This document shows positions 1 through 64,000 of a DNA stretch of 64,000 nt, piece by piece (positions within the stretch are counted from its first letter, which is position 1; every line of letters begins with the position of its first letter). Made by a program: the position numbers and the translations under genes. This DNA comes from a virus. Its lineage: Duplodnaviria; Caudoviricetes. Under the pieces are notes generated by a model. It saw only the letters and a list, made by a program, of their open reading frames with translations. It ran no database searches and had not been told where the DNA came from. The stretch is taken from IMG/VR virus record IMGVR_UViG_3300028833_000053. The stretch is one strand, 5' to 3'.

Positions 1-48
1 CCCAAGACGGGCTGCTATGGTCACGATGAGCCCGCCGATCCAACTACC

Positions 49-480
49 GTGGCGTTCGCCGACCGTCTGCGCAAGGACTTGGGAATCATGACGAACCTTG
101 AAGCCATCAAGTGCAAGGCGGCGAGGTTCTTCATCCACGCGGACGACAACGAGTTGTGTGGAGACGAGATTTCGGAATCCGGCGCAAAGGACAAGGACTA
201 CAACAAGAAGACGGACAAGTGGGAGCCGGGAAAGGCGAAGTGGGACACCCAGTCCTACACCTATGACCGAGTTTGCGAGGTTCTGCTTGACCATCTTGTG
301 AAGGATGGGCGTATCAATCTAACGGACCCGAAGTTCCTGGAAATGATGAAGATTGACGAAAAATATCTGAGCGAGTGGGACAAGAAGCATGAGCAATTCT
401 ATGATTTCCACAATGGCAAGTCTTTCACTTGGCAGGACTTGAAGTTCAATTCGCTTGCCTGGAATCTGCATGAGGGTTGA
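49..480 (+). CDS. Hypothetical protein, probably truncated at the window edge
   Basis: Open frame with phage-like codon usage, ends TGA. Confidence 0.6.
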   Translation: MAFADRLRKDLGIMTNLEAIKCKAARFFIHADDNELCGDEISESGAKDKDYNKKTDKWEPGKAKWDTQSYTYDRVCEVLLDHLVKDGRINLTDPKFLEMMKIDEKYLSEWDKKHEQFYDFHNGKSFTWQDLKFNSLAWNLHEG

Positions 481-43253: not shown

Positions 43254-43964
43254 TTAAGCTTCTTTTTCCACCCAACCTTTTTCGATCAAGAAGTCCCGAA
43301 CATATTGTTTCTTGAATACATAATTTGAAAATGCACATTTAATCATTGCGTTTGTGGCATTTCTATTTCGTGGATGTATATGTATTCCAGAATACACATA
43401 ACAGCACCTATCAAATTTCTTGATTTTGCAATCCTCTATTGAATCATATTGCGCAAAGTGCCAATAAATATCCTCACCCAAATGGATGTTTTCATGGGAA
43501 AATGGCTGGAACTTGTCCGATCTAAATATCATACTGAAGGGCGCATTTGGAGATGTCCAATTTGCTTGTCTCCATCTGTTTCTCCAATGCCATTTGATAA
43601 ACATAAGTTCCATATCTTTATTCACTGAATAGAACTCATATATACGTTGAAGTACATCATTTGACTCCAATTTATCATCTCCATCAACAAACCAAATGAA
43701 ATCTGAGGGTTGGGAATTCAAAGATTGGTAGTACCCTTGATTCCTAGTTTCCCCCGGACCGAGATTTTTAGAATTCCTGACAATGGTGAATTTTCCAGGA
43801 TGTTCACTAGAATAATTCATCAACACGTTATAAGTATTGTCACTAGAATAGTCGTCCACACATACAACATGGTAATTTGCAAACGTTTGATTCATGATTG
43901 AATCAAGTGTTACACCTATTGTATGTTCCACATTGAAACATGGTATTATAAACTTGATAAACAT
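43254..43964 (-). CDS. Family 2 glycosyltransferase
   Basis: IIPCFN, VDDYSSD, NLGPGETRN.G, FVDGDD, GED. Confidence 0.9.
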   Translation of the reverse strand: MFIKFIIPCFNVEHTIGVTLDSIMNQTFANYHVVCVDDYSSDNTYNVLMNYSSEHPGKFTIVRNSKNLGPGETRNQGYYQSLNSQPSDFIWFVDGDDKLESNDVLQRIYEFYSVNKDMELMFIKWHWRNRWRQANWTSPNAPFSMIFRSDKFQPFSHENIHLGEDIYWHFAQYDSIEDCKIKKFDRCCYVYSGIHIHPRNRNATNAMIKCAFSNYVFKKQYVRDFLIEKGWVEKEA

Positions 43965-43973
43965 AGTTTTATA

Positions 43974-44639
43974 TCAGTCTGAAAGACTTGCAAACACCCA
44001 ATTGGGGTTGTATTCCTTATATACAGATTGGTTGAACATATCATTGTGTCTATTAACATAATATGTTGGCTGAATAAAATCCTATTTTCGTGGAACAATA
44101 TACATTGGAATTTTATTGTTATGACAATGTAACGCCAGCATTCCATCTGCACCAACATCGGGATTCTTCAATTGCCCCAACGTGGGGGAAAAACCTATAT
44201 TACCTGGAATAAATATAGAGCAGCCTGTTCCAGCAATTATAGTCTAATGTCCTTCATCTAATGAGTTTCTAGGAAACACATATTTTTTGCTTTCCTTTAT
44301 TATGCCCAATAACGTCATCACCCAATTTGGATGACCGTCCAGCATATTGCACATATAATCAACATAGTTATCCGGATAGCTGAAATCATCATCGACGGTT
44401 AAAACATAGTCATCTTTGAACTTGTCAATTCCATAAAACTTTCCCTTATCATGCAAATTAGTTCCATCACATATGGGAATACAATTTTGAAATTTGCCAA
44501 TTTCTTCGGGAATATCTTCGTATCCATCCAGATACAACTAAAACTAATCGCATTGCTTACATAATTCACCCAAACGGTCAATCATTCCATTGTACCTTTT
44601 GGGAAAACTTGCCATGCAAACTATTTTTTCTTTGCTCAT
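43974..44639 (-). CDS. GT-A glycosyltransferase, paralog of 34036-34896, with 4 in-frame TAG
   Basis: VCMASFPKR, KGKF, TVDDDF.YP, IAGTGC, GAD. Confidence 0.75.
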
Positions 44640-45449
44640 TTATACAGCTCCATTTATTTCCTGTGATATCACCTACTTATAATTATCCAGTCCTGATAAA
44701 AATATGTCAGATATTTTACTACATTCGCCAAATCTTATTTGATGCTTTCTACCCATCATGCAGTATGGGCAAATTTCATCATTCAATTTTATGAAACTAT
44801 CCTAATCATTGAACAAATCCCTAAAATGCTCTTTGAAATAATGTTCTTTCCCCAATAAAATACATATTGATTTACATGCCGTATTGTGATAATAATAGAT
44901 TTTTCCATGCAGCTTGAAAATTCCCTTTCCACAAACCTTGAAACAACCGCATTTATTATATGGAACTCTATCATTTGTTGGTTCACCATACAAAAAATTA
45001 TAATGAACATTTTTTCTATCAGAAATTGAAAAGCTTCCCCTTCTACCACTTACAATTTTATCATAGTTTCCATAGATTCCACGCCAATAATTTGCCTATT
45101 CCTCTGACATAAAATCTACATATATCTATTTGTACTTACGATCTAAAATGGTTTTAATTACATCTTTGTTAATACCATTAGTCACAACTAGAATTCTTCC
45201 AGTATCTATATTGAATTTCTATTGGTCAAGCCAGTCTAAAATATCCATAAGATATGGATTTGTAGTCGGTTCACCCCCAATTATGGCAATATATTTGGAA
45301 AAACGATAATCCTTTATTTCATCGTATATCATTTTTATATCATCCAATGTCATTATAGACAACGGATTTTTGGGAACTTGATCGCAAAGGCGGTTACATG
45401 CCGCGCATTTCAAATTGCATTCTAATGTTATGTCTATTTCTAGGTTCAT
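44640..45449 (-). CDS. Radical SAM protein with 5 in-frame TAG
   Basis: CNLKCAAC, GGEP, VTNG, C-terminal Cys cluster CPYC. Confidence 0.85.
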
Positions 45450-45450
45450 C

Positions 45451-46902
45451 TTATCTATACCTCATTGTGTTATTCCATCCAGTAATTAGCATGTTGGATA
45501 TTCTTTTTGTTCCCTTGTATTCCAATTCAAGTGGATGTAAAATCCCTCCTAATATCTCCGCCCAACGCAGTGGATATTTAGGATGTCGATGCTGGTAAAT
45601 GCGTGTGTCTTTCCAACACGATTTTAATTGATCAAACCGCTAATCCAATATTCCATTCAGTCTGTCAAACCATTTCTATGTAAATTCCGTTTTGGGTTTG
45701 CAAATGAACCATCCATTACATATTAAATGTTCCACAGTTTCGGGATTGTTATATTTCTTTATTGGAGAACCACCAACAATTTCTTTTGCACCGACAACCC
45801 ACACTTCTGGATTGTTGTTCAAGAATTCAAAACATTCCTTCCAATTGTTTTCCCTTGTGTAGTGTTTTATGTCGGCATATCCACCGCCATAAAAGTGCAT
45901 TAAATAACAGCGTAAATAATCCGCTTTATGTGTTGCTGACAAAAACCAATATGCGGGATGAAATGGATGTTCTTCAATCTGCATTTGAATAATTGAGTCT
46001 GGATTAAGGAATTTAGTTTCAACACCAAGATTCTATCTAGTATTCCATGCGGAGTTTCTGTCTTTGGACATGGAATTTACGTCTGTCCATAACTGCCATA
46101 TGTACTAATCCCATGTCTCGTATGGTTCATCTTGAATTGAATTATTGTCCATTAAATATTTATAGTTAGATAAATAATCAAGCCAAGGATTTGGTTTATA
46201 TCCAATATGTTCAAATATGGATTTGAATGTTCTTGGTAAAAGTGCCTGCTTTATTACATGGTTATTTCTTTTTTTATTAAATGCCTTGCAAATTCCCATC
46301 TCACATTGTGGCACGCCGCAGTTTTCGGGAAAACGAATCTCTTTGAATATGTTTTTATGCCGCAGCATACATTGTTGATTATATGTATAGAAATAATTGT
46401 CCTGTATATAGGTCAAAAAATTTGGCGTTTCAACATAATTCAATAAATCAACATGTCCATCACAATTGGCAACACGTATTCCCCCATTTCCCTGTTCCTT
46501 TAGCATTTCAACTAGTTCAGTGAAATCAAATTCATGTTTTAGCAGCCAATCATCTTCAACAGTCAATGCCACGTCACTATGCTCATATGCCTTGTCCAAA
46601 GCCTTGTTCAATACATGACCATATCCCCAACTATTATCGTCACACTATACAATTTCATAATCATTGAAATTCAACTTCTTGCAAATGTTCTCAAGTGCTT
46701 CTATATGCTCCTATGTGCTTCTATCGCAACAAAGATACAAGTAAATGCCATCTTTGTATTTGCAATTGTTTAGAAGATGTTCAAGACAATAACAGGCACA
46801 CTTGGTTTTATTATGTGTTGAAACCGTAACAGGAAGACGTTGTTTTAGTTCCGCGTACTATTTTAGATTGAGCATTTGTTCTGCTTTAGTTACAATATCC
46901 AT
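45451..46902 (-). CDS. Two-domain glycosyltransferase (GT2-like plus GT32-like) with 7 in-frame TAG
   Basis: TVEDDW in the first domain; HKADYLR...YGGGYADIK and YPLRWAEILG in the second. Confidence 0.75.
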
Positions 46903-46937: not shown

Positions 46938-47246
46938 TTACTTCCTTGAATTCCATTTCTTGACAACGTTATTGACACCCTTTGCTTTCATGCTCACCCT
47001 GCACTTCTGGCATATTATCTCCCACTCGTTCTTGTACTCGTATGCCAATCCAAGATAGGGCTTTCCACCGCAAAACGGACATTTTTCAAGTCCAGACGTA
47101 TGCGTTCTGAAATCTGGACAGTCCTTGCACTCAAACTTCGTGTCATTGAACTTGCATTTTTCAGGATCGGCGTTCCTTGAACATGTGTCAAGGCTGTAAG
47201 CACCCACATAATGATAGTGTACGCATTTTCTCTTTTTCATTGACAC
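46938..47246 (-). CDS. Lar-like Zn-ribbon protein
   Basis: LEKCPFCGG...CQKC...KWNSR. Confidence 0.7.
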   Translation of the reverse strand: MSMKKRKCVHYHYVGAYSLDTCSRNADPEKCKFNDTKFECKDCPDFRTHTSGLEKCPFCGGKPYLGLAYEYKNEWEIICQKCRVSMKAKGVNNVVKKWNSRK

Positions 47247-47596
47247 TCCTTTATCGTGATAAGCTTAATTCCCAATTTGTCTGCAAGGGCTTGGCAATTC
47301 GCGCAAGGCTTTATCGGACGCCATTCCCCGCTATGCCCAATCCTTGAAATGAATATGGTCTTGATGAGATCACCATACTTCATCATCAACTTGTATTCTG
47401 CGTGAACGCCAATCCCAGGCTTTCCCTCTACCCCATCCGGGGGAAGTCCATTGAACGCACGTCCAATGAACTCTCCGCGCTTGTCAAATGCCATTGCCGA
47501 AATCCTGTACTTTGACCTTGACTGCGAGGCTTTCTTCCCCAGCATTTCAAGGAGAAATGGGAGCGCGTTGCTTGAAAGTCTGGGCATCTTTCTCAT
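47237..47596 (-). CDS. Cytidine/deoxycytidylate deaminase-fold protein
   Basis: HAE and PCANC Zn-binding motifs. Confidence 0.8.
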   Translation of the reverse strand: MRKMPRLSSNALPFLLEMLGKKASQSRSKYRISAMAFDKRGEFIGRAFNGLPPDGVEGKPGIGVHAEYKLMMKYGDLIKTIFISRIGHSGEWRPIKPCANCQALADKLGIKLITIKECQ

Positions 47597-48582
47597 TAGA
47601 AGAACAATGGCGCGTATTTCATGAAATCTGCACTGAACTTTTTCCTTGCATCATCCAGCTTCTTGCTCTTGAAAGGCTCGACCTTGACTTCCCATGTGTC
47701 GGTGTCAATGAAGGTGTTTGGACTCCATTGGTCTGACTCCATGTCGCGCTCATATCCACGGGGATTGCAGAGAATTGTCTGGTTGTTGTCCCCAATCTTC
47801 GCAATGGTGACGCTGTGGACGTGACCACAGCACCAAACGCGGATATTCGGATTCTTGATGATGAAGTCCTCAAGGTCCGAAACGTAGGAAGCGTTCATGT
47901 TGTTGTTGACGTATTGTTCGGAGATGCACTTTGGCGAAGGGCAGTGATGAGACATAATTATTATGTCTCTATCCTTGTTTTCCTGCACCAACTGCTCAAT
48001 TTTTTTGAAGGTGATTTCAAACCACTTCTTGTAATCGTCTGGACGCAGATACCTCTGCTTCAATCCACGGTCGTCGAACTCGTCCTCAACGTGACCCCAG
48101 CGGAAATCGTTGAGACCTCGGGAGGCCGCTGCCATGTTCACAACTTCGGGAGTCAATGGCTCTTCGCCATGCTCGGCGCGTATCTTATTGCCGCTTTCTA
48201 TGCAGCGTTTTGTGAATTCCCCCTGATATTGATAGTCCGTGTAGAGGGTTGAACCAATGACAAGAATGTTTGTGCCCGGAACCATCTTTGACATAACGCC
48301 AACCTGTTCGTCCATGAAGGTGACGTTGCCATCTTCCGGAAACTTCTCATGCAGAAATTCCTTCTGCTTCTTGATAGTCCACCCAAGATCGTTGTAGGCT
48401 GGATCATGGTTGCCAACAATGAACATGCCATTGTGGACGTTTTGCTGAATCCATTTTGCGGTACCCTTCACGTTGCCAGACACGTCACCGGGTATGAGAG
48501 TGAAAGTCTCCTTGTCCCGCAAGGACAATGGAAATCTTTGGTTGATGTCAATGTGAATGTCGGAGAATACTCTAATCTTCAT
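47596..48582 (-). CDS. Calcineurin-like metallophosphoesterase
   Basis: SDIH, GD, GNHD, HH.P, GHVH motifs. Confidence 0.9.
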   Translation of the reverse strand: MKIRVFSDIHIDINQRFPLSLRDKETFTLIPGDVSGNVKGTAKWIQQNVHNGMFIVGNHDPAYNDLGWTIKKQKEFLHEKFPEDGNVTFMDEQVGVMSKMVPGTNILVIGSTLYTDYQYQGEFTKRCIESGNKIRAEHGEEPLTPEVVNMAAASRGLNDFRWGHVEDEFDDRGLKQRYLRPDDYKKWFEITFKKIEQLVQENKDRDIIIMSHHCPSPKCISEQYVNNNMNASYVSDLEDFIIKNPNIRVWCCGHVHSVTIAKIGDNNQTILCNPRGYERDMESDQWSPNTFIDTDTWEVKVEPFKSKKLDDARKKFSADFMKYAPLFF

Positions 48583-54773: not shown

Positions 54774-55871
54774 TTATCTGTGCTTCTTGTCTTCAGGGAA
54801 GATCATTGTGTTCAGGATTTCTCGTATGTACCACAATCCCTTTGTGAAGTTGTCCTTGCCAACTTTTTGACGCTCTTTGTTTTCCTTCTCCATTGTTGTA
54901 CTGAGTTGGTGGACAAGGCTGGACAAGTCGTTGTACGTCATATAATGTTCCTTGTCAAATATGCAGCAATCATACCTGAACACCAAAAGACACTCAACCT
55001 GCAAGATGAATCCATAAAGGCTCTTCAGTGAGCCATAGAACAGACTGTAGAACAAGGATGATTGGGACAAACCATAATACGTGTCCTTGTGGCATTGTGG
55101 GCAAAGTTCCGTGTTGAAGCAGTTTTCAAGTCTGTTTATGAAATAACCGGTGACCTTTGCGAACACGCCATCTTCATCGTCAAACATCACCATTGACGGC
55201 AATGCGTTGAGACAGTCCAATCTTCCCTGCATTGTGTCTATGGCTTCAAGATCAACGCTGGCTTCTGGCGTATGTGTCGCGTCCAATCCCCTGTATACCA
55301 CAACTTTCTTCACGAACGCCAAAACAAGGTTTATGCCAAATTGGGTTTGCTCCATTTCCTCCGTAACCACGCCAAGCTCCTCATAGAAGTAGTGCATCAA
55401 CTTTGACATGGTTTTCACGGTCGGCCAACCCATAGTGAATTCGTATATCTTGGACTTGTACGGTATTTCCACAACCTGGTCTTCAACATACGCATTGTCC
55501 ATCTTGCAAAGGTACTTTGACATATCATAGCGGTAGTTGATGTCAACCCCGCAATGTGGACACTTGTACGTTATGGGGTCTTTGAAGAAGGACATTTGGA
55601 AAAACACCATCAAGCAGTAAAGTCTGTCAAACTCCGTGAATTCCTTTACGTCAACGTTGTCGGTAAGAAGCATTACCTGCAGGTATTCCGTCACTGCGTC
55701 ATATATCACGTCCATTTGCCTCCTGTCAAAGTTGTCAATGATGGTCTTGGCTATGGACTTGAGTTCAGTCACGGTGGTTTCGCGCAAAACGACAGGCAAG
55801 CCGGAACTTGGCAACGTAATGGGTATTCTGTTTGTTGGAAACCCCTTGCTGAACAAGTCCCGGTTTGTCAT
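54774..55871 (-). CDS. T4 gp26/gp51-like baseplate hub protein, paralog A
   Basis: ITLPSSG..V.LRE.TV.ELK, TEFDR, YKCPHC, C-terminal CPQC. Confidence 0.6.
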   Translation of the reverse strand: MTNRDLFSKGFPTNRIPITLPSSGLPVVLRETTVTELKSIAKTIIDNFDRRQMDVIYDAVTEYLQVMLLTDNVDVKEFTEFDRLYCLMVFFQMSFFKDPITYKCPHCGVDINYRYDMSKYLCKMDNAYVEDQVVEIPYKSKIYEFTMGWPTVKTMSKLMHYFYEELGVVTEEMEQTQFGINLVLAFVKKVVVYRGLDATHTPEASVDLEAIDTMQGRLDCLNALPSMVMFDDEDGVFAKVTGYFINRLENCFNTELCPQCHKDTYYGLSQSSLFYSLFYGSLKSLYGFILQVECLLVFRYDCCIFDKEHYMTYNDLSSLVHQLSTTMEKENKERQKVGKDNFTKGLWYIREILNTMIFPEDKKHR

Positions 55872-55899
55872 CGTCAACTCTCCGTTATGTCACATGGCA

Positions 55900-56898
55900 T
55901 TAGCCGCCAAGGAAGTCCGTGATGTTGGCGACCTGTCCATCCTGCTGCGCACCGCAATAGGCGCAATCCTGGTACTTGAACACATCGTTCATCGGCGTGA
56001 CAAACTCCTTGATAATCTTGTTGATTACTCCAATGTCCTCGTCAAACAAGATGCTCTGAGGCAGGGAGTCGATGATTTGAACCCTCTCAGGATACGTGAG
56101 TTCCTCAAGATTTGCCGTCAAAGAATCTTCTGGGTCGGAGATTTCCGAAACGGTAATCTTCTTGATGAACATGATGATGTACTCAACCTGGGAAAGACTG
56201 TCCATGGACTCCTTCACGTTCTTGTTGGAACCCTCGTACTTTCTGTAGTAGTTCTTGAAGAAGTCCTCGATGTTCCTGACATTCGCCCAACCGGCTGTGA
56301 ACGTGAACTTGCGGTTACCCGCCTCAATCTCAATCTCGGTGTCGGGTTTGTAGGTCTTTGCGAAGTTGCGCAGAAGTTTCGCCGTGTCCAGACGGTAGGA
56401 GTTTTCCTTTTCGCAATTCTGGCATGTGTACTTGATTTCGGGATTGAGCTTGTTCATCTGCTGAAGGTTCAACGTGATGAAGATTCTCTCGAACTCCGTG
56501 TAGTCGCGGATGTCAAAACCCTTCTCAAGGGCAAGACGGTTAATCATTGAAGTCATGGCGCAGTACATGACGTCCGCCCTTGACTTGTTTTCCAACGCCA
56601 TCTTTGACATGTCCTTCTGCTCGGCGGTGGAGATTTCCTTGAACTCCACGGTCTTGCCGACGCTGGGCAGGTCAATTGGTGTTGAATTCGTGGACATCTT
56701 CTGACGGAAGGCGTTCACAATGTTTGCCGCGTTTGTGGGCTTCTTCTCCTGTTTCTTCACGGGAAGAACCTTCAATTCCGGAGTTGCCTCCGATGTCTGG
56801 GAAGCCGCTGCTTCCTTCTCCAGCTCCTGATTTACAAGATTCGCCGTAGCGGTGTCAGCCGGAACTTCGTCCTTGTAGTGTGTAATAGGTGGTTGCAT
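55900..56898 (-). CDS. T4 gp26-like baseplate hub protein, paralog B
   Basis: IDLPSVG..VEFKE.STAEQK, TEFER, YTCQNC, CAYC. Confidence 0.6.
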   Translation of the reverse strand: MQPPITHYKDEVPADTATANLVNQELEKEAAASQTSEATPELKVLPVKKQEKKPTNAANIVNAFRQKMSTNSTPIDLPSVGKTVEFKEISTAEQKDMSKMALENKSRADVMYCAMTSMINRLALEKGFDIRDYTEFERIFITLNLQQMNKLNPEIKYTCQNCEKENSYRLDTAKLLRNFAKTYKPDTEIEIEAGNRKFTFTAGWANVRNIEDFFKNYYRKYEGSNKNVKESMDSLSQVEYIIMFIKKITVSEISDPEDSLTANLEELTYPERVQIIDSLPQSILFDEDIGVINKIIKEFVTPMNDVFKYQDCAYCGAQQDGQVANITDFLGG

Positions 56899-57695
56899 TA
56901 TTTTACCTCGCTTTTCCTTGTTTTAGATTTCCTCGCCTTGCCTTTTTTCGCAGGCTTCTTTTCCGCCTTTTCGGACTTCTCGGTCTTTTCCTTGTCATCC
57001 ATTCCAATCTCAACGGCTCCAGTGGAGTCCTTGTTTTGAAGATTTGACATGAAAGACTGCAGCTTCTTCATTTGCTCCCTCTTCGCCTTGTTTGTCTCGC
57101 GGTTGATGATGTCAACCTTCTTGCGGAAACGCTCCACCACCTCATCGGCGTGAAGCCAAATATCCTTGCCGTCCAGCACCTCCTGGATTTCCTTCTTGGT
57201 GAGGAAGTGCTTGTAGATTTCGTTGAAGAAGTTTTCCAACCAAGGGTTGTAGAATTCCTCCTCCTTCTTGATGTCGGATTGCTTTCCAAACGAACATCCA
57301 GATGACGTGTGGATCATCATATAGCCATGTGGATAGCAAATCAAGCCATCGCAAGCCAAGGCAACCATAGTCGCCGCGCTTGCACATGCGGACTCAATTT
57401 GGCAAACAACTTGCGCTTGGCACAACTTTATCTGCGTCACTATCTGGATTGCGGTGAACAAATCCCCGCCAAAGCAGTTGATGTGAATTACAACAAGGTC
57501 GTCCTCTCCGGCGGATTGAAGGATGTCAAACCACTTCAAGAAGCACCTTGCATCTCCAATCTCGTCAATCAGCCAAAGATGGAATATGTTCTTTACCTGT
57601 TTTCCATAGGAAACCATATTCTCCTTGTCAAACTGTCCATCCTCGTCGGAAAGCCCTGGGAGCAGCCCCTTGAAACTTTCTATCTTCGTTTTCAT
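56898..57695 (-). CDS. ClpP-family serine protease
   Basis: HINCFGGD, ACASAAT, MMIH, DIWLHADE. Confidence 0.85.
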   Translation of the reverse strand: MKTKIESFKGLLPGLSDEDGQFDKENMVSYGKQVKNIFHLWLIDEIGDARCFLKWFDILQSAGEDDLVVIHINCFGGDLFTAIQIVTQIKLCQAQVVCQIESACASAATMVALACDGLICYPHGYMMIHTSSGCSFGKQSDIKKEEEFYNPWLENFFNEIYKHFLTKKEIQEVLDGKDIWLHADEVVERFRKKVDIINRETNKAKREQMKKLQSFMSNLQNKDSTGAVEIGMDDKEKTEKSEKAEKKPAKKGKARKSKTRKSEVK

Positions 57696-58860: not shown

Positions 58861-60807
58861 TTAACCAAAGGGATTGTCTCCGCCCTCGTCACCACCTGCG
58901 TCATCTCCACCTTCATCGCCTCCAGCTTCATCTCCACCAGCGGCGTCGTCACCACCTTCTTCTCCGCCACCTTCTCCCCCTTCACCATTCTCCTCATCGG
59001 CGGTTGTGACGTTTATCTTGTTGGTGTTGAAAATGCTATGTGCAAGCAGTTCCTCAAGGCTGGACATAGACATTGTCTTCAACTTCGTAATCTGAGAAGC
59101 GTCAATCTCGCCACCCATGTACTTCTCGCCAATGCCCTCAACCATTGCGGCCATGATACCATCAAACAAACGAAGTTGGTTCATTTCGTTTATCTCTGCG
59201 TCAGTCATTCCCAAGATGTTCTTCTGCGCCCAAGTCTTTGACATTTCATCGCGGTCGGCATACTTGGCGTAAAGATCCATCTTCTGTGTGATTTCCTGGT
59301 TGGAAATGAACTTGGAATAGACGTATGGCGGAGTGAATTCAACGTAGAAGTCACTTTCCTTCATCTGGTTCTTCTGCCATATTCCACGCAGCTTCAAATG
59401 GACGATGAACGAGTCTTGCAACGCCTTTGCGAACTTCATTTGAATGCCAAGTTCCATCTTGGAGAAGGAGAATTCCTCTTGCGTGATTTCGGTTGAAGCA
59501 CGGTAGGAATTGGATTCAAGGTTGTCCCAGCGCGTGTATGGAACGCCAAATTGCTTTATGAGACGTTTCAAGAAGAACTTGAGGTCTTCAATCTGGTCGT
59601 ATTGCGCCGTTGATTCAACAGTGGAAACCGTAGTGCCATCGTTTGCGTTGGATTTCGGGAACACCCAGGAATCCAACATGGAACTTGGATTGTAGGTCTT
59701 GCCAATCATGGAATTGTTGGACTGGCGGTCAATCTTCGCAACCTTCTTTTCGGAAAGTTTCTGCGCAAACTTCCTAACATATTCATGCGCAACCTTGTCC
59801 GCCATTCCACCAGTTGCTATGTTGAAGAGAAGTCTCTGCGGTGCCCTCGTAACGCGGAGAATAACCGCGGCGTCCTGCAAGAGAACCAATTGGTAGTACG
59901 CCTGCTTCACGCCCTCAATGATGGAATAGGTCACTCGCCCATTTGGAGATTTCTTGTCATGCGAGAAATACGTTATCTGCGGGAACAGCAAAGGCACAAC
60001 GTTCTGCGCCGAACTGAAATCCAATCCACGGTAGCCATTGGTGTAAATGGTGTTGAATATGGCGGAGTTCTGCGAGTAGTACGCGGACAAAGTGTATTGA
60101 AGTTCCTGTGCGTACTTGTCAAGGTCAAAGTAGATGCCGCAATTCTCGCCAGTAGCCTGGTTGATGAGAATGTCGTAGAAATCGTTTCTCAACCGCTTCA
60201 CGCCTATGATTCCCAAGGACGGAATGTCGTGGTTGATGATGTTTTCCCAGGCAACCTCGCCCTCAATTACATAGGTGCGGATGATGTCCACAATGTTGTT
60301 GCGGATGTCAAACAACTTGATGAAGTTGGAAAACTCCTTCTAAATGAGTTCCTGTTGCTGTGGCGTTATCTTGTCGGAAATGTCCTCGGAGAAATTCAAT
60401 CGTATGAACTCTCCAGTAGATGACACCGTAAGGAAGTCGGACGCGATTTCGTTTATGCACCAGTTGCACTCGGGGAATTCAGAAATGGCGCGGTACTGCC
60501 AAAGACGTTGGCACTTGTCCGTTATGAGGGGAATGTAGTTGTGGTTGAACTCGTCTGAGACGTAGCCAAAGAACGCCGTGGAAATTCCAGGATTCTGCAG
60601 GGACACGATACCCTGCTTCTCCACAATCTTTTCAATCTTTGAGGTATAGGACTTGAAAGTCTCGAAGTTACGGTTCTATGCGAGAATCTATATCCTGTCC
60701 TCTCCCTCTGGTCCGACGTTTCCCGCGCCCTACGTGTTAAGCTTGTTCATTCTGTCCACGGGGCTCGCGGATGCAGTCAATACGCTATGGTTGTTGTTGT
60801 TCGCCAT
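58861..60807 (-). CDS. T4 gp20-like portal protein, 648 aa with 4 in-frame TAG
   Basis: QYRAISEFPEC..INEI; QLVLLQDAAVILRVTRAPQRLLFNI; SMLDSWVFPK; QIEDLKFF. Confidence 0.9.
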
Positions 60808-60850: not shown

Positions 60851-61660
60851 TCAACCGCATTCGCAATAAAGAACCTGGACATCGGCGTGCTTGTTGAAAT
60901 CGGAATCCCAGCCATTGAGAGCGTAGATGGACTTCGAGTCCTGACCATTTCCACCCTGACCCATTTCAATTCCGAAGAGACGCTCACCTTCATTGATTCG
61001 CCTCTTCAACTGATCAAGGTCTGAACACCACTTGTCAAGTTCCACATCATAGCCCTCTGCAATAAGACGTTCGGTGTTCTCTATGGTGTTCATGGTGATT
61101 TCGTAAAGACCCATGTAGTTGGCGCGTGAATAGGAACACTCATCGTGGCACTTCTTGGCGCAGTCCAGGATATTTCCCACAACGCGCTTGCGGTATTCCT
61201 GGTCGGATTCCACGTCCTTGTTGTGCCACCCAACAATGCTGTAATGCATGGTTTCCGCGTCAACGGTGATTCCACACGCGATTATCGGCTCTTCAATCTC
61301 AATCTCATCATCGGACTCCGAAAGAACCTTGGGCTTGGGGAAATCGGGGTCGGCATCCATGTTCTTCATATCAATTTTGAACTCGTCAATCCACTTCTTT
61401 CCGGTTATCTTCGTGGTGAAAGTCCCCGCCTTGAAAGAACCCAGGAACAACAGCTCAAAAGTATTGAGGCAGTATTCAAGGTTCCGACGGTTGTTGTCAT
61501 CAAGCTCCTTGACGAATTCCTCGGGGTAGTCATAGTCCTTGTCCTCTGAACACGCCTTTACGACATCCTTGACAAAATCCTTGAAGGGATAGTTCTTCGT
61601 GAGAACCACCACAAAGCTGCTTGAACTTGAATTGCTGACGTAATCACTTCTGATTTTCAT
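60851..61660 (-). CDS. SNSSSSSF-tag protein 5 (269 aa)
   Basis: Starts MKIRSDYVSNSSSSSFVV. Confidence 0.85.
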   Translation of the reverse strand: MKIRSDYVSNSSSSSFVVVLTKNYPFKDFVKDVVKACSEDKDYDYPEEFVKELDDNNRRNLEYCLNTFELLFLGSFKAGTFTTKITGKKWIDEFKIDMKNMDADPDFPKPKVLSESDDEIEIEEPIIACGITVDAETMHYSIVGWHNKDVESDQEYRKRVVGNILDCAKKCHDECSYSRANYMGLYEITMNTIENTERLIAEGYDVELDKWCSDLDQLKRRINEGERLFGIEMGQGGNGQDSKSIYALNGWDSDFNKHADVQVLYCECG

Positions 61661-62135
61661 TGGTTGCCTCCTTCACTACTTCCAACCTGTCCAAAATCCT
61701 TCCAAGGAAGGTGTCTCTATCCCGAAAGGCGTGTTCGGTGTCTGAATCGTCTGGCTCAAAACCAAATTTCTTGAAATACTTGTAGAGGAACGCAAGGTTG
61801 CCCATCGCCTCCTTATCCCAATCATCGCACTCAAAGCCCAGAGCCGTGATTTCCTCGGGCTTCTTGGGGTCTGCGTGGGTGTCGGTGTCACCATCGTACT
61901 CGCCCTGAATGTAGTCCTCGCAGAACTTGCTGGGGTTGTTCCAGTCAAGCCAGTCATCCGGACCGCTGTTGGTGGTGAGAACGCCAACGTTCATGGTCTC
62001 GCCCAATGGGTCATAGGCGCCGTAGATGCAATCCCCGAAATCTTCAAGGAACATCTTGGCCGCCTTGTCGGCATCCTTCTTGATGATGAAGGAGCTGGAA
62101 CTTGAATTGCTGACGTAATCGCTTCTCACTTTCAT
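61644..62135 (-). CDS. SNSSSSSF-tag protein 4 (163 aa)
   Basis: Starts MKVRSDYVSNSSSSSFII. Confidence 0.85.
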   Translation of the reverse strand: MKVRSDYVSNSSSSSFIIKKDADKAAKMFLEDFGDCIYGAYDPLGETMNVGVLTTNSGPDDWLDWNNPSKFCEDYIQGEYDGDTDTHADPKKPEEITALGFECDDWDKEAMGNLAFLYKYFKKFGFEPDDSDTEHAFRDRDTFLGRILDRLEVVKEATNENQK

Positions 62136-62153
62136 TTCATTTCTCCTTGATAC

Positions 62154-62618
62154 TCAACCACACTCGTTGAAGAATGTCGATCCACTGGCGTCCGAACCAC
62201 CCGTGACAATATCCACCTCATCGTACTTCGCGTCCAATCCCTTCTCGTTGAGCGCGTCAACAACTCGGGTCTTGTACTCCTTCAAGGTTTCGGTGTCCTT
62301 CATCTTGTTGTCGCCAGACTTCATGTCATAGCCAACCAAAACTTCCTCAACATCTTCTCCCCAATCACGTTGGGCAATCTGGAAGTCAAGCCCAGCATTC
62401 TCAAGAACCCGATACAACACCTCAGAGAAGGATTCCAGCTCAATGAATTCCTCAATGGACTCGCATTCGGAACCGTATTCGTGGTTCAAGTCCTCCAGCA
62501 GCTTGCCCTTGTCCTTCACCAGCTTGTCCATAAGCCCGTCAACGTCGGAAAACACCTTCCCAACTATCACGAAACTGGATGAACTGGAATTGCTAACGTA
62601 GTCTGTGCGGATTTTCAT
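62154..62618 (-). CDS. SNSSSSSF-tag protein 3 (154 aa)
   Basis: Starts MKIRTDYVSNSSSSSFVI. Confidence 0.85.
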   Translation of the reverse strand: MKIRTDYVSNSSSSSFVIVGKVFSDVDGLMDKLVKDKGKLLEDLNHEYGSECESIEEFIELESFSEVLYRVLENAGLDFQIAQRDWGEDVEEVLVGYDMKSGDNKMKDTETLKEYKTRVVDALNEKGLDAKYDEVDIVTGGSDASGSTFFNECG

Positions 62619-62626
62619 TGTTTACC

Positions 62627-63109
62627 TCAAAGGTCAAGGTCCGAACCACGAATGCTGTTGTAGTCAAAGTGGTCGTCCCCACTGATTTCAATCTGCTTGT
62701 ACTTGCTCTCAAGGATGGTGGCAACCTGCACTGCGTTTGCCAAGTCCTCGCCAAAATCGTCACCGCACTGGCAGTAGACAGAACTATTCTCCTGTTGAAG
62801 AACGAGACGGATGAAGTTCATTTGACCATAGCCATCCTCGGCCATGATGTTGTCGGAGTCAACGTTCACCTCAATGTCCAACTCGTCATCGTACTTCCAT
62901 ATCTCAACGTTCTGTCCAAAGACGGTTTTCGCCTTTTTCTCAAACTCATTCAACTGTTCAAGGCTTTCGCAATGGCAGCGAAGGGTGATTCCATGAACGT
63001 GCTTGAGCAGCTTCATAAAGCCCTCGTCAATGCAGGCTCCCTTGTCCTCAAAGTCAATGATGAAGGAACTGGAGCTGGAATTGCTAACATAGTCGTTTCT
63101 GATTTTCAT
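62627..63109 (-). CDS. SNSSSSSF-tag protein 2 (160 aa)
   Basis: Starts MKIRNDYVSNSSSSSFII. Confidence 0.85.
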   Translation of the reverse strand: MKIRNDYVSNSSSSSFIIDFEDKGACIDEGFMKLLKHVHGITLRCHCESLEQLNEFEKKAKTVFGQNVEIWKYDDELDIEVNVDSDNIMAEDGYGQMNFIRLVLQQENSSVYCQCGDDFGEDLANAVQVATILESKYKQIEISGDDHFDYNSIRGSDLDL

Positions 63110-63122
63110 TTCTTGATTCTCC

Positions 63123-63401
63123 TTAATGGTTGTTTGACCACTTTATGAATTCGGGATCCAACATGCACATGGTGTCGTAGAGGCTGCGGACGCATTCCTC
63201 ATCGTTGTCATATCCCTCCACGTTGTGTTCATCGTCATAGCCGTAGAACTCAACGCACTTCAATCCGTTGTGAAGCCCGTCACAGTAGTTCGCTTCAATC
63301 TCGGGCGCACCATACTTCTCGTAGTACCGATTGTAGGTGTCGCAGTCCACTATGAAACTGGACGAACTTGAATTGCTCACATAGTCGTTTCTCAGTTTCA
63401 T
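63123..63401 (-). CDS. SNSSSSSF-tag protein 1 (92 aa)
   Basis: Starts MKLRNDYVSNSSSSSFIV. Confidence 0.85.
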   Translation of the reverse strand: MKLRNDYVSNSSSSSFIVDCDTYNRYYEKYGAPEIEANYCDGLHNGLKCVEFYGYDDEHNVEGYDNDEECVRSLYDTMCMLDPEFIKWSNNH

Positions 63402-63712: not shown

Positions 63713-64000
63713 TCAACCGTTGTCGTTGCCACCGCGGATGTAGGACTCCTTGAAGCGGAGGAAATCGTACAAGGCATCCTCGGACTCAAACATTTCCATG
63801 CAGCTGCCCTCGGACGAAGCCGACTGGTGGTCGATGTAGAACTCATCGTCAATGCAAGTCCAGGCGTGGTAGCCCTTCTCCTCATCGTGGAAAATCTTCG
63901 TCTTGATGGCATCGGCGTTCAGCTTGACGTTGAAGTGAAACTTCTCCTTGCAGACCTTCCGAAGCATGTTCATAGAGACGGTCAAAGTCCTTGCCAGTGA
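63713..64000 (-). CDS. Hypothetical protein, probably starting beyond the window edge
   Basis: Open frame ending ...YIRGGNDNG. Confidence 0.5.
   Translation of the reverse strand, partial: SLARTLTVSMNMLRKVCKEKFHFNVKLNADAIKTKIFHDEEKGYHAWTCIDDEFYIDHQSASSEGSCMEMFESEDALYDFLRFKESYIRGGNDNG

Follow-up and report, generated by a model that had tools for sequence, protein, structure and literature searches.

The closest described systems to the one reported here are the radical S-adenosylmethionine (SAM) enzymes with a SPASM domain that act as maturases of ribosomally synthesised peptides with post-translational modifications (RiPPs), among them PqqE/PqqA, MftC/MftA, the StrB/SuiB streptide system and the maturases of sactipeptides and ranthipeptides (reviewed in PMC10114670). 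The three-residue cyclophane systems FxSxx-COOH/FxsB and XyeB/GrrB (PMC10114670, there citing Nguyen et al. 2020) form ring-to-C-beta cross-links at an aromatic-x-residue motif. Full-size proteins are also handled by enzymes of this kind: AtsB, which together with anSME represents the anaerobic sulfatase-maturating SPASM enzymes, abstracts a hydrogen from the C-beta of serine (PMC10114670), and the SPASM enzyme CrpC cross-links a whole Cys-rich protein (PMC13692751). Here we describe a row of genes in the Caudoviricetes record IMGVR_UViG_3300028833_000053 that share one N-terminal peptide of 16 residues, called the tag in the following, and a divergent radical-SAM/SPASM enzyme that accompanies the tag in phages and bacteria and that probably uses it as its recognition and reaction peptide. 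The stretch of DNA that was analysed, the window, has 64,000 nucleotides and corresponds to the reverse strand of genome bases 265268-329267.

In the window, five consecutive genes on the minus strand (Table 1) start with Met-Lys-(Ile/Val/Leu)-Arg-x-Asp-Tyr-Val-Ser-Asn, five serines and Phe, followed by two to three beta-branched residues, and a Shine-Dalgarno-like sequence is found upstream of each of them. A six-frame scan of the phage record (433,895 bp, terminal repeats present) led to 11 tagged genes with the consensus MKxRxD(Y/F)VSNSSSSSF, namely the five of the array, two past the window end and four elsewhere, two of these just before the window start and two distant. The five tandem genes of the original prediction, which had been made from the letters of the window, were therefore confirmed at their positions, and the array was found to be longer than described, as two more tagged genes follow past the window end. 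The sixth tagged gene is frameshifted: the tag and the first 105 codons extend between about 64283 and about 63969, the open reading frame at 63713-63985 (90 aa) is the C-terminal half in the other frame, and orthologs of 188-190 aa align in two frames by tblastn, with one extra base near codon 105. The extra base may stem from a sequencing error, mark a pseudogene or belong to a programmed frameshift.

Selection on the peptide and not on a DNA repeat had been claimed from synonymous Ser codons. This was borne out across the 11 copies, as the Ser codons of the tag mix the AGY and TCN boxes and nucleotide identity (72%) is lower than amino-acid identity (83%). Within the 11 tags, Ser11, Ser14 and Ser15 switch boxes, and Ser9 is always AGC, Ser12 always AGY and Ser13 always TCN; the fixed boxes at Ser9, Ser12 and Ser13 may reflect an inherited codon history or a second constraint. 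The absence of in-frame TAG, which had been noticed for the five genes, also extends to all 11 copies. Stop-codon recoding is present in this phage, where many genes are open only with TAG read as a residue, and recoding marks late genes in such phages. No in-frame TAG was detected among the 1,934 codons of the 11 tagged genes, with P = 0.002 at the genome-wide rate and P = 1e-5 at the rate of TAG-containing genes, suggesting that the tagged genes are expressed before the code switch. Synteny of the array is kept in related megaphages, where each paralog has its own ortholog group, and the tagged copies are therefore old and individually maintained. Several of the homologs of the 269-aa protein are located on contigs of 420-437 kb.

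The original prediction had proposed to search with a profile of the tag and to inspect the neighbourhoods of the hits. A search of 1.84 billion representative proteins with a profile made from residues 1-40 matched 20,094 clusters at E <= 1e-3, and among the 150 best matches listed the tag was almost always at residue 1. All 11 copies from this phage matched phrog_7397, a family without annotation, from profile position 1 and over the first 18-105 positions; these matches are weak (E 2e-6 to 0.06) and mostly cover the tag only. The aromatic-Val-Ser/Thr triplet and the Asn-Ser dipeptide are invariant in the tag. After removal of the tag, the bodies formed at least seven groups, with an hhalign probability of at most 2% between groups. 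Bodies that do not align, as had been stated, are hence the rule for most pairs, and the exception is one family of the 154- and 163-aa proteins and the 129-aa protein from outside the window, which were joined via intermediates in BLAST groups. Similarly, the late hydrophobic strands followed by Gly/Asp and the ECG ends that had been pointed out exist and recur within ortholog groups, but they are not found in all groups. Domain searches gave no function: a convincing Pfam domain was found in 0 of 99 tagged proteins of the wider family, Pfam and NCBIfam scans of the five array proteins showed nothing above noise, and the 269-aa protein had no tblastn match in cultured phages. A protein atlas search of the array proteins led only to unnamed viral clusters (0.86-0.87), and a search of small reach for longer tag-bearing proteins gave two weak matches among six candidates.

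AlphaFold models of two tagged proteins allowed us to locate the tag relative to the fold. The predicted local distance difference test (pLDDT) score was 88 for the 269-aa protein, with residues 1-11 below 50, and 83 for the 154-aa protein, with residues 1-12 below 50 and a first strand at residues 15-23; in both models the first strand begins at the Phe that ends the tag. With these two models, Foldseek against the PDB detected nothing at E <= 1e-3, VIA-align reached best Z values of 4.9 and 4.5 for small ferredoxin-like or helical pieces only, and the best match among BFVD viral models had an E value of 0.04; absent fold matches for two models do not establish new folds. From the models and the profile comparisons, the tag is thus predicted to be flexible, an invariant N-terminal peptide carried by many folded bodies that are unrelated to one another. 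That it might merely form the first strands of a known enzyme fold, an objection raised in the original prediction and here considered for PP-loop, HAD and Toprim-like folds, was rejected, as both models place the tag outside their confidently folded part and no profile similarity joins the bodies.

Tag-bearing viral contigs were gathered by a degenerate DNA pattern and the neighbours of their arrays were then inspected. In other phages, the gene directly upstream of the tag array was seen to encode a Cys-rich protein of about 355-380 aa, which Pfam Radical_SAM matched only with E 3e-5. Against the SPASM model TIGR04085 (cut-off 27 bits), one member of this main branch scored 28 bits and another 21 bits. 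Further weak matches were obtained to PqqE, MftC and WgkB (E 4e-4), to the structures of SkfB and anSME, the latter over the SPASM part of the enzyme, and to pseudo-radical-SAM families of NCBIfam. A CX2CX5CX3C block is present in the main branch, and the first cluster motif, with varied spacings, ends in Cys-Tyr-Gln. Judged by these motifs and profile matches, the tag-adjacent enzyme is a divergent radical-SAM/SPASM family that Pfam barely detects. A profile built from seven tag-adjacent proteins then identified the enzyme of this phage, a protein of 405 aa outside the window (Table 1), with an hhalign probability of 99.7% and E 1e-26. Three N-terminal cluster cysteines as well as invariant Gly-Phe-Asp-Ser-Cys and Cys...Ser-Phe blocks are common to both branches of the enzyme, the main one and that of the megaphages.

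The 405-aa enzyme is located 8.4 kb upstream of the array and co-directional with it, in a common conserved TAG-free block with the order enzyme, LemA-like gene, two unknown genes, kinase-NADAR fusion, seven tagged genes and portal. The fusion directly upstream of the array (404 aa; genome 263172-264386, L005:1173-2384) combines a P-loop (deoxy)nucleoside-kinase-like part with NADAR and is syntenic in all relatives examined. Two inserts are found between enzyme and array (genome about 256292-259422), one a TAG-containing gene with ROS/MucR-like and restriction-endonuclease-like parts (L143:3793-4977), the other an HNH endonuclease (L143:6468-6923); they are absent in the relative G002 and are probably mobile nucleases.

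The linkage of tag and enzyme was observed in both directions. Among 51 tag-bearing viral records, the enzyme profile matched 45, and the six non-matching records are all incomplete; in those at least 90% complete, one enzyme copy each was present in 18 of 18. For comparison, the enzyme was detected in 167 of 50,697 cultured phage records. In the reverse test, 80 viral loci were chosen by the enzyme alone and flanks of 10 kb were scanned for tags, which were found at 65 of the loci, 300 of 301 of them on the strand of the enzyme and with a median gap of 917 nt from the enzyme to the first downstream tag. When the enzymes were clustered at 50% identity, 18 of 21 clusters had tags within 10 kb. 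Bacterial chromosomes and metagenome-assembled genomes (MAGs) gave a similar picture, with tags in the flank (8-10 kb) of 71 out of 80 enzyme loci and all 119 tags co-directional; these bacteria include Clostridia, Lachnospiraceae, Ruminococcus, Bacteroidales and Chitinophaga. At the inspected bacterial loci (L246-L262 and others), a tagged gene of about 130 aa stands immediately upstream of the enzyme and abuts or overlaps its frame. The tag of this minimal bacterial module is often a variant with Lys at position 4 and Thr or Cys within the serine run.

In relatives of the phage studied here, enzyme orthologs were found 2-8 kb upstream of the arrays. Each genome has one enzyme and 3-13 tagged genes, and runs of 11-13 tagged genes behind the enzyme were seen in some phages (viral contigs L203, L209 and L176). 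Both parts are also present in the Escherichia coli phage RB16 (HM134276.1, 66610-71000 and 90403-91557), where the enzyme is RB16p156, annotated as putative radical SAM protein, and the tagged genes, RB16p106 and RB16p111, stand on either side of a vWA-domain gene at a distance of about 20 kb from the enzyme.

Another radical-SAM gene, within the window, was considered as partner of the tag and rejected. Pfam Radical_SAM and SPASM scans of the genome led only to NrdG and to this 269-aa gene, which belongs to a glycosyltransferase island (window 43254-46902) of low guanine-plus-cytosine content (about 34%) with three to four glycosyltransferase-like genes; the radical-SAM gene has a Cys-rich tail, and the island genes are dense in in-frame TAG, with 4-7 per gene. 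The 269-aa gene is missing in two complete relatives whose arrays are retained, and its similarity to other phage radical-SAM genes is at most weak and generic, with none to the tag-adjacent enzymes. A peptide-pattern search with it found no relatives in viral contigs. As one complete array-keeping relative had a Pfam radical-SAM match to NrdG only, scans at the level of Pfam had pointed to a clade without partner enzyme, a view that was overturned by the family-specific enzyme profile.

Like the RiPP maturases, the system has a SPASM-type enzyme gene beside co-directional genes with a common recognition peptide that otherwise differ. In contrast to RiPP precursors, the clients here are folded proteins of 92-327 aa with unrelated bodies instead of short peptides, and the conserved peptide begins with Met1 and varies far less than leaders typically do. 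Moreover, no protease or exporter accompanies the tagged genes, and no protease was seen to be conserved in the arrays. The system is also mainly one of large phages, and the first cluster motif of its enzyme is non-canonical. With folded proteins as clients and without removal of a leader, the system falls outside the strict definition of a RiPP, although it works like a radical-SAM/SPASM pair of the RiPP type.

The aromatic-Val-Ser/Thr triplet of the tag fits the aromatic-x-residue motif of the cyclophane systems. Their motif is C-terminal and repeated, whereas here it is N-terminal and single, and the Asn and the five invariant serines after the triplet are not explained by cross-link chemistry; likeness of the enzyme to the cyclophane clade is limited to the WgkB model (E 4e-4). 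For a radical-SAM/SPASM enzyme acting on a full-size protein, anSME/AtsB and CrpC are the precedents. The tag has neither the Ser/Cys-x-Pro/Ala-x-Arg sulfatase motif nor any cysteine, and, unlike in both cases, there are many unrelated clients per enzyme.

Of the functions originally proposed for the shared leader, modification or targeting, a docking hairpin for variable effectors, and a self-processing site, a modification tag is the best supported, because the tag co-occurs with and adjoins one radical-SAM/SPASM family. We therefore consider it reasonably probable that the tag serves the enzyme for recognition and reaction, be it as handle or as substrate. The 16-residue tag would mark unrelated, small and TAG-free phage proteins, which are probably made early, as clients of a single radical-SAM protein dedicated to them, with a SPASM- or twitch-type iron-sulfur domain. 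We infer that the flexible tag would thread into the enzyme like the leader/core peptide of a RiPP and undergo a radical-mediated covalent modification within or beside the aromatic-Val-Ser/Thr-Asn-Ser5 stretch. By analogy, candidate chemistries are a cross-link between aromatic ring and C-beta of the Phe-x-Ser type, as formed by FxsB/XyeB enzymes, or an oxidation at the serine C-beta as in AtsB (PMC10114670). The folded bodies would then do different jobs, and our guess is that these are most likely host take-over or counter-defence, because the genes are TAG-free, show no known domain and are present in several copies per genome. In its widest form, this would be a general maturation system of large phages and many anaerobic bacteria, in which one enzyme covalently modifies the tag, which any small protein could bear, and by this modification dozens of unrelated early proteins per lineage become active or stabilised anti-host effectors, a generalisation that seems to us quite possible while falling short of probable.

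The enzyme of this phage was modelled together with a client's first 40 residues, SAM and two clusters, and the predicted complex scored 0.55 (runs 0.63, 0.55 and 0.54), compared to 0.01 for the best control, with a contact agreement of at least 80% between runs and a partner pLDDT of at least 52. Of the 80 solved complexes and 110 mismatches in the benchmark, 58 and 2, respectively, passed the mark; passing scores up to 0.60 comprised 7 of the 80 solved complexes and both passing mismatches. The prediction thus lends weak support to a contact between tag and enzyme, and it fits a substrate and a subunit alike.

Several observations weigh against the proposed modification of the tag. A complex that passes with a score of this height is wrong more often than right, except where the prior is high. 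The distance between enzyme and main array is 56 kb in the complete relative G003, and in RB16-type phages the enzyme is about 20 kb from the tagged genes, so that the linkage is genomic and not always operonic. The clients, folded proteins of 92-327 aa, do not resemble classical RiPP precursors, and no known radical-SAM reaction accounts by itself for five invariant serines. In addition, the enzyme of the megaphage branch is atypical: it has C-x8-C-x2-C followed by Tyr instead of CX3CX2C, a degenerate Gly-Gly-Glu-like SAM motif and no Pfam or NCBIfam match, and it keeps the first SPASM block but misses the last CX2CX5CX3C block. Because of these atypical motifs it could be inactive or act otherwise; from its sequence, the enzyme of this phage may be twitch-like or altered in activity.

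The docking hairpin of the original prediction would survive only as docking to the enzyme. In such an arrangement, which we regard as unlikely, the tag would remain chemically unchanged and attach the small proteins as exchangeable specificity or regulatory subunits, the variable bodies bringing targets such as host proteins, nucleic acids or metabolites to the enzyme. The ratio of one enzyme to 3-13 tagged genes per genome, the folded bodies conserved as ortholog groups across megaphages and the weakly predicted contact between tag and enzyme would all agree with this. Small partner proteins accompany PqqE/MftC-type enzymes, and the bacterial tagged protein of about 130 aa that abuts the enzyme is reminiscent of them. 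The known partners of SPASM enzymes, PqqD and MftB, are however of one conserved fold and not of many, an invariant, disordered and serine-rich N-terminus resembles a substrate peptide more than an interface, and no candidate for a third-party substrate was seen to be conserved beside the arrays.

Rather improbable is a megaphage homolog that has lost radical chemistry and binds, holds or assembles the tagged proteins as a chaperone, for scaffolding or storage. Its degenerate SAM motif, truncated SPASM part and extra N-terminal domain of about 80 aa would fit a loss of activity, as would the missing Pfam and NCBIfam matches and the pseudo-radical-SAM families among the weak matches of the main branch. 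On the other hand, both branches retain the three N-terminal cluster cysteines as well as the Gly-Phe-Asp-Ser-Cys and Cys...Ser-Phe blocks without variation, and the tag is equally invariant in the megaphage lineage, which argues for the same constraint.

The array abuts the portal gene, as had been noted and as was confirmed by the Portal_T4 match (Table 1), a ClpP-like protease gene is nearby, and the genome encodes T4-like head genes. A targeting tag like the internal-protein leader of T4 had been suggested in view of the adjacent portal; it would load the tagged proteins into the prohead for injection. T-even internal-protein loci indeed combine a short shared N-terminal leader with highly variable small proteins in tandem. 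Nevertheless, we consider capsid targeting very improbable, because the tag has no Glu-ended protease site (no hydrophobic-x-Glu, and no Glu in the first 18 residues of 31 out of 31 aligned tags), all 11 tagged genes are TAG-free and probably early, in contrast to the TAG-using portal and other late genes, arrays follow the enzyme and not head genes in 57 other viral loci, and the tag also occurs beside the enzyme in bacterial chromosomes and MAGs. The least credible proposal, self-processing at Asn10-Ser11 that exposes an N-terminal serine without a partner enzyme, can draw on the invariant Asn-Ser dipeptide, but the chain around this dipeptide is predicted to be unstructured, without a fold that could put the bond under strain, and the tight two-way linkage to the enzyme would be left unexplained.

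The phage genome has 34 tRNA genes, and the portal gene next to the array is not part of the system. In its vicinity (window 54774-57695), the ClpP-like protease, which is TAG-free, and two T4 baseplate-family proteins are encoded. A row of three genes at window 46938-48582 codes for a Lar-like restriction-alleviation protein, a small deaminase-like protein and a calcineurin-like phosphoesterase. The coordinates of the features are collected in Table 1.

Table 1. Tagged genes, partner enzyme and other features of the phage locus (window positions unless marked as genome positions)
Feature	Position	Strand	Remarks
Tagged gene 1, 92 aa	63123..63401	-	N-terminal match to phrog_7397; orthologs in relatives
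Tagged gene 2, 160 aa	62627..63109	-	phrog_7397, E 1.4e-4; own ortholog group
Tagged gene 3, 154 aa	62154..62618	-	AlphaFold modelled; no fold match
Tagged gene 4, 163 aa	61644..62135	-	body of one family with the 154-aa and 129-aa copies via intermediates
Tagged gene 5, 269 aa	60851..61660	-	69 homologs; AlphaFold pLDDT 88; no PDB fold match
Sixth tagged gene, frameshifted	63713..64000, on to about 64283 beyond the window	-	tblastn of orthologs
Untagged gene within the array, 98 aa	63398..63694	-	no family match
C-terminal 159 aa of a 327-aa tagged paralog, start before the window	1..480	+	preceded by a 173-aa tagged gene
Partner enzyme, 405 aa, TAG-free	genome 254987-256201, outside the window	strand of the array	found by family profile
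Other radical-SAM gene, 269 aa, 5 TAG	44640..45449	-	glycosyltransferase island; not the partner of the tag
T4-like portal gene	58861..60807	-	4 in-frame TAG read as Gln; Portal_T4 E 5e-64; not part of the system

The tag motif was found in no paper, a description of the tag or of the enzyme-client pairing was not found in the literature, and searches for phage radical-SAM/SPASM systems gave nothing relevant. The central claim of the original prediction, a shared N-terminal leader under selection at the peptide level on divergent bodies as part of an undescribed system, is retained. As RB16 and many T4-like phages of Klebsiella, Enterobacter and Citrobacter carry both parts, the system can be tested in the laboratory. 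If the enzyme modifies the tag, this new post-translational modification would rank among the most widespread ones in phage biology that await characterisation, with over 20,000 clusters of client proteins and 3-13 client genes per genome, and it would occur beyond phages in Clostridia, Bacteroidales and other bacteria. The leader-guided chemistry of radical-SAM/SPASM enzymes would then extend from peptides to whole, diverse proteins, and the portable 16-residue tag might serve as a tool. For the phages themselves, it would provide the first functional handle on a large block of proteins without any known domain.

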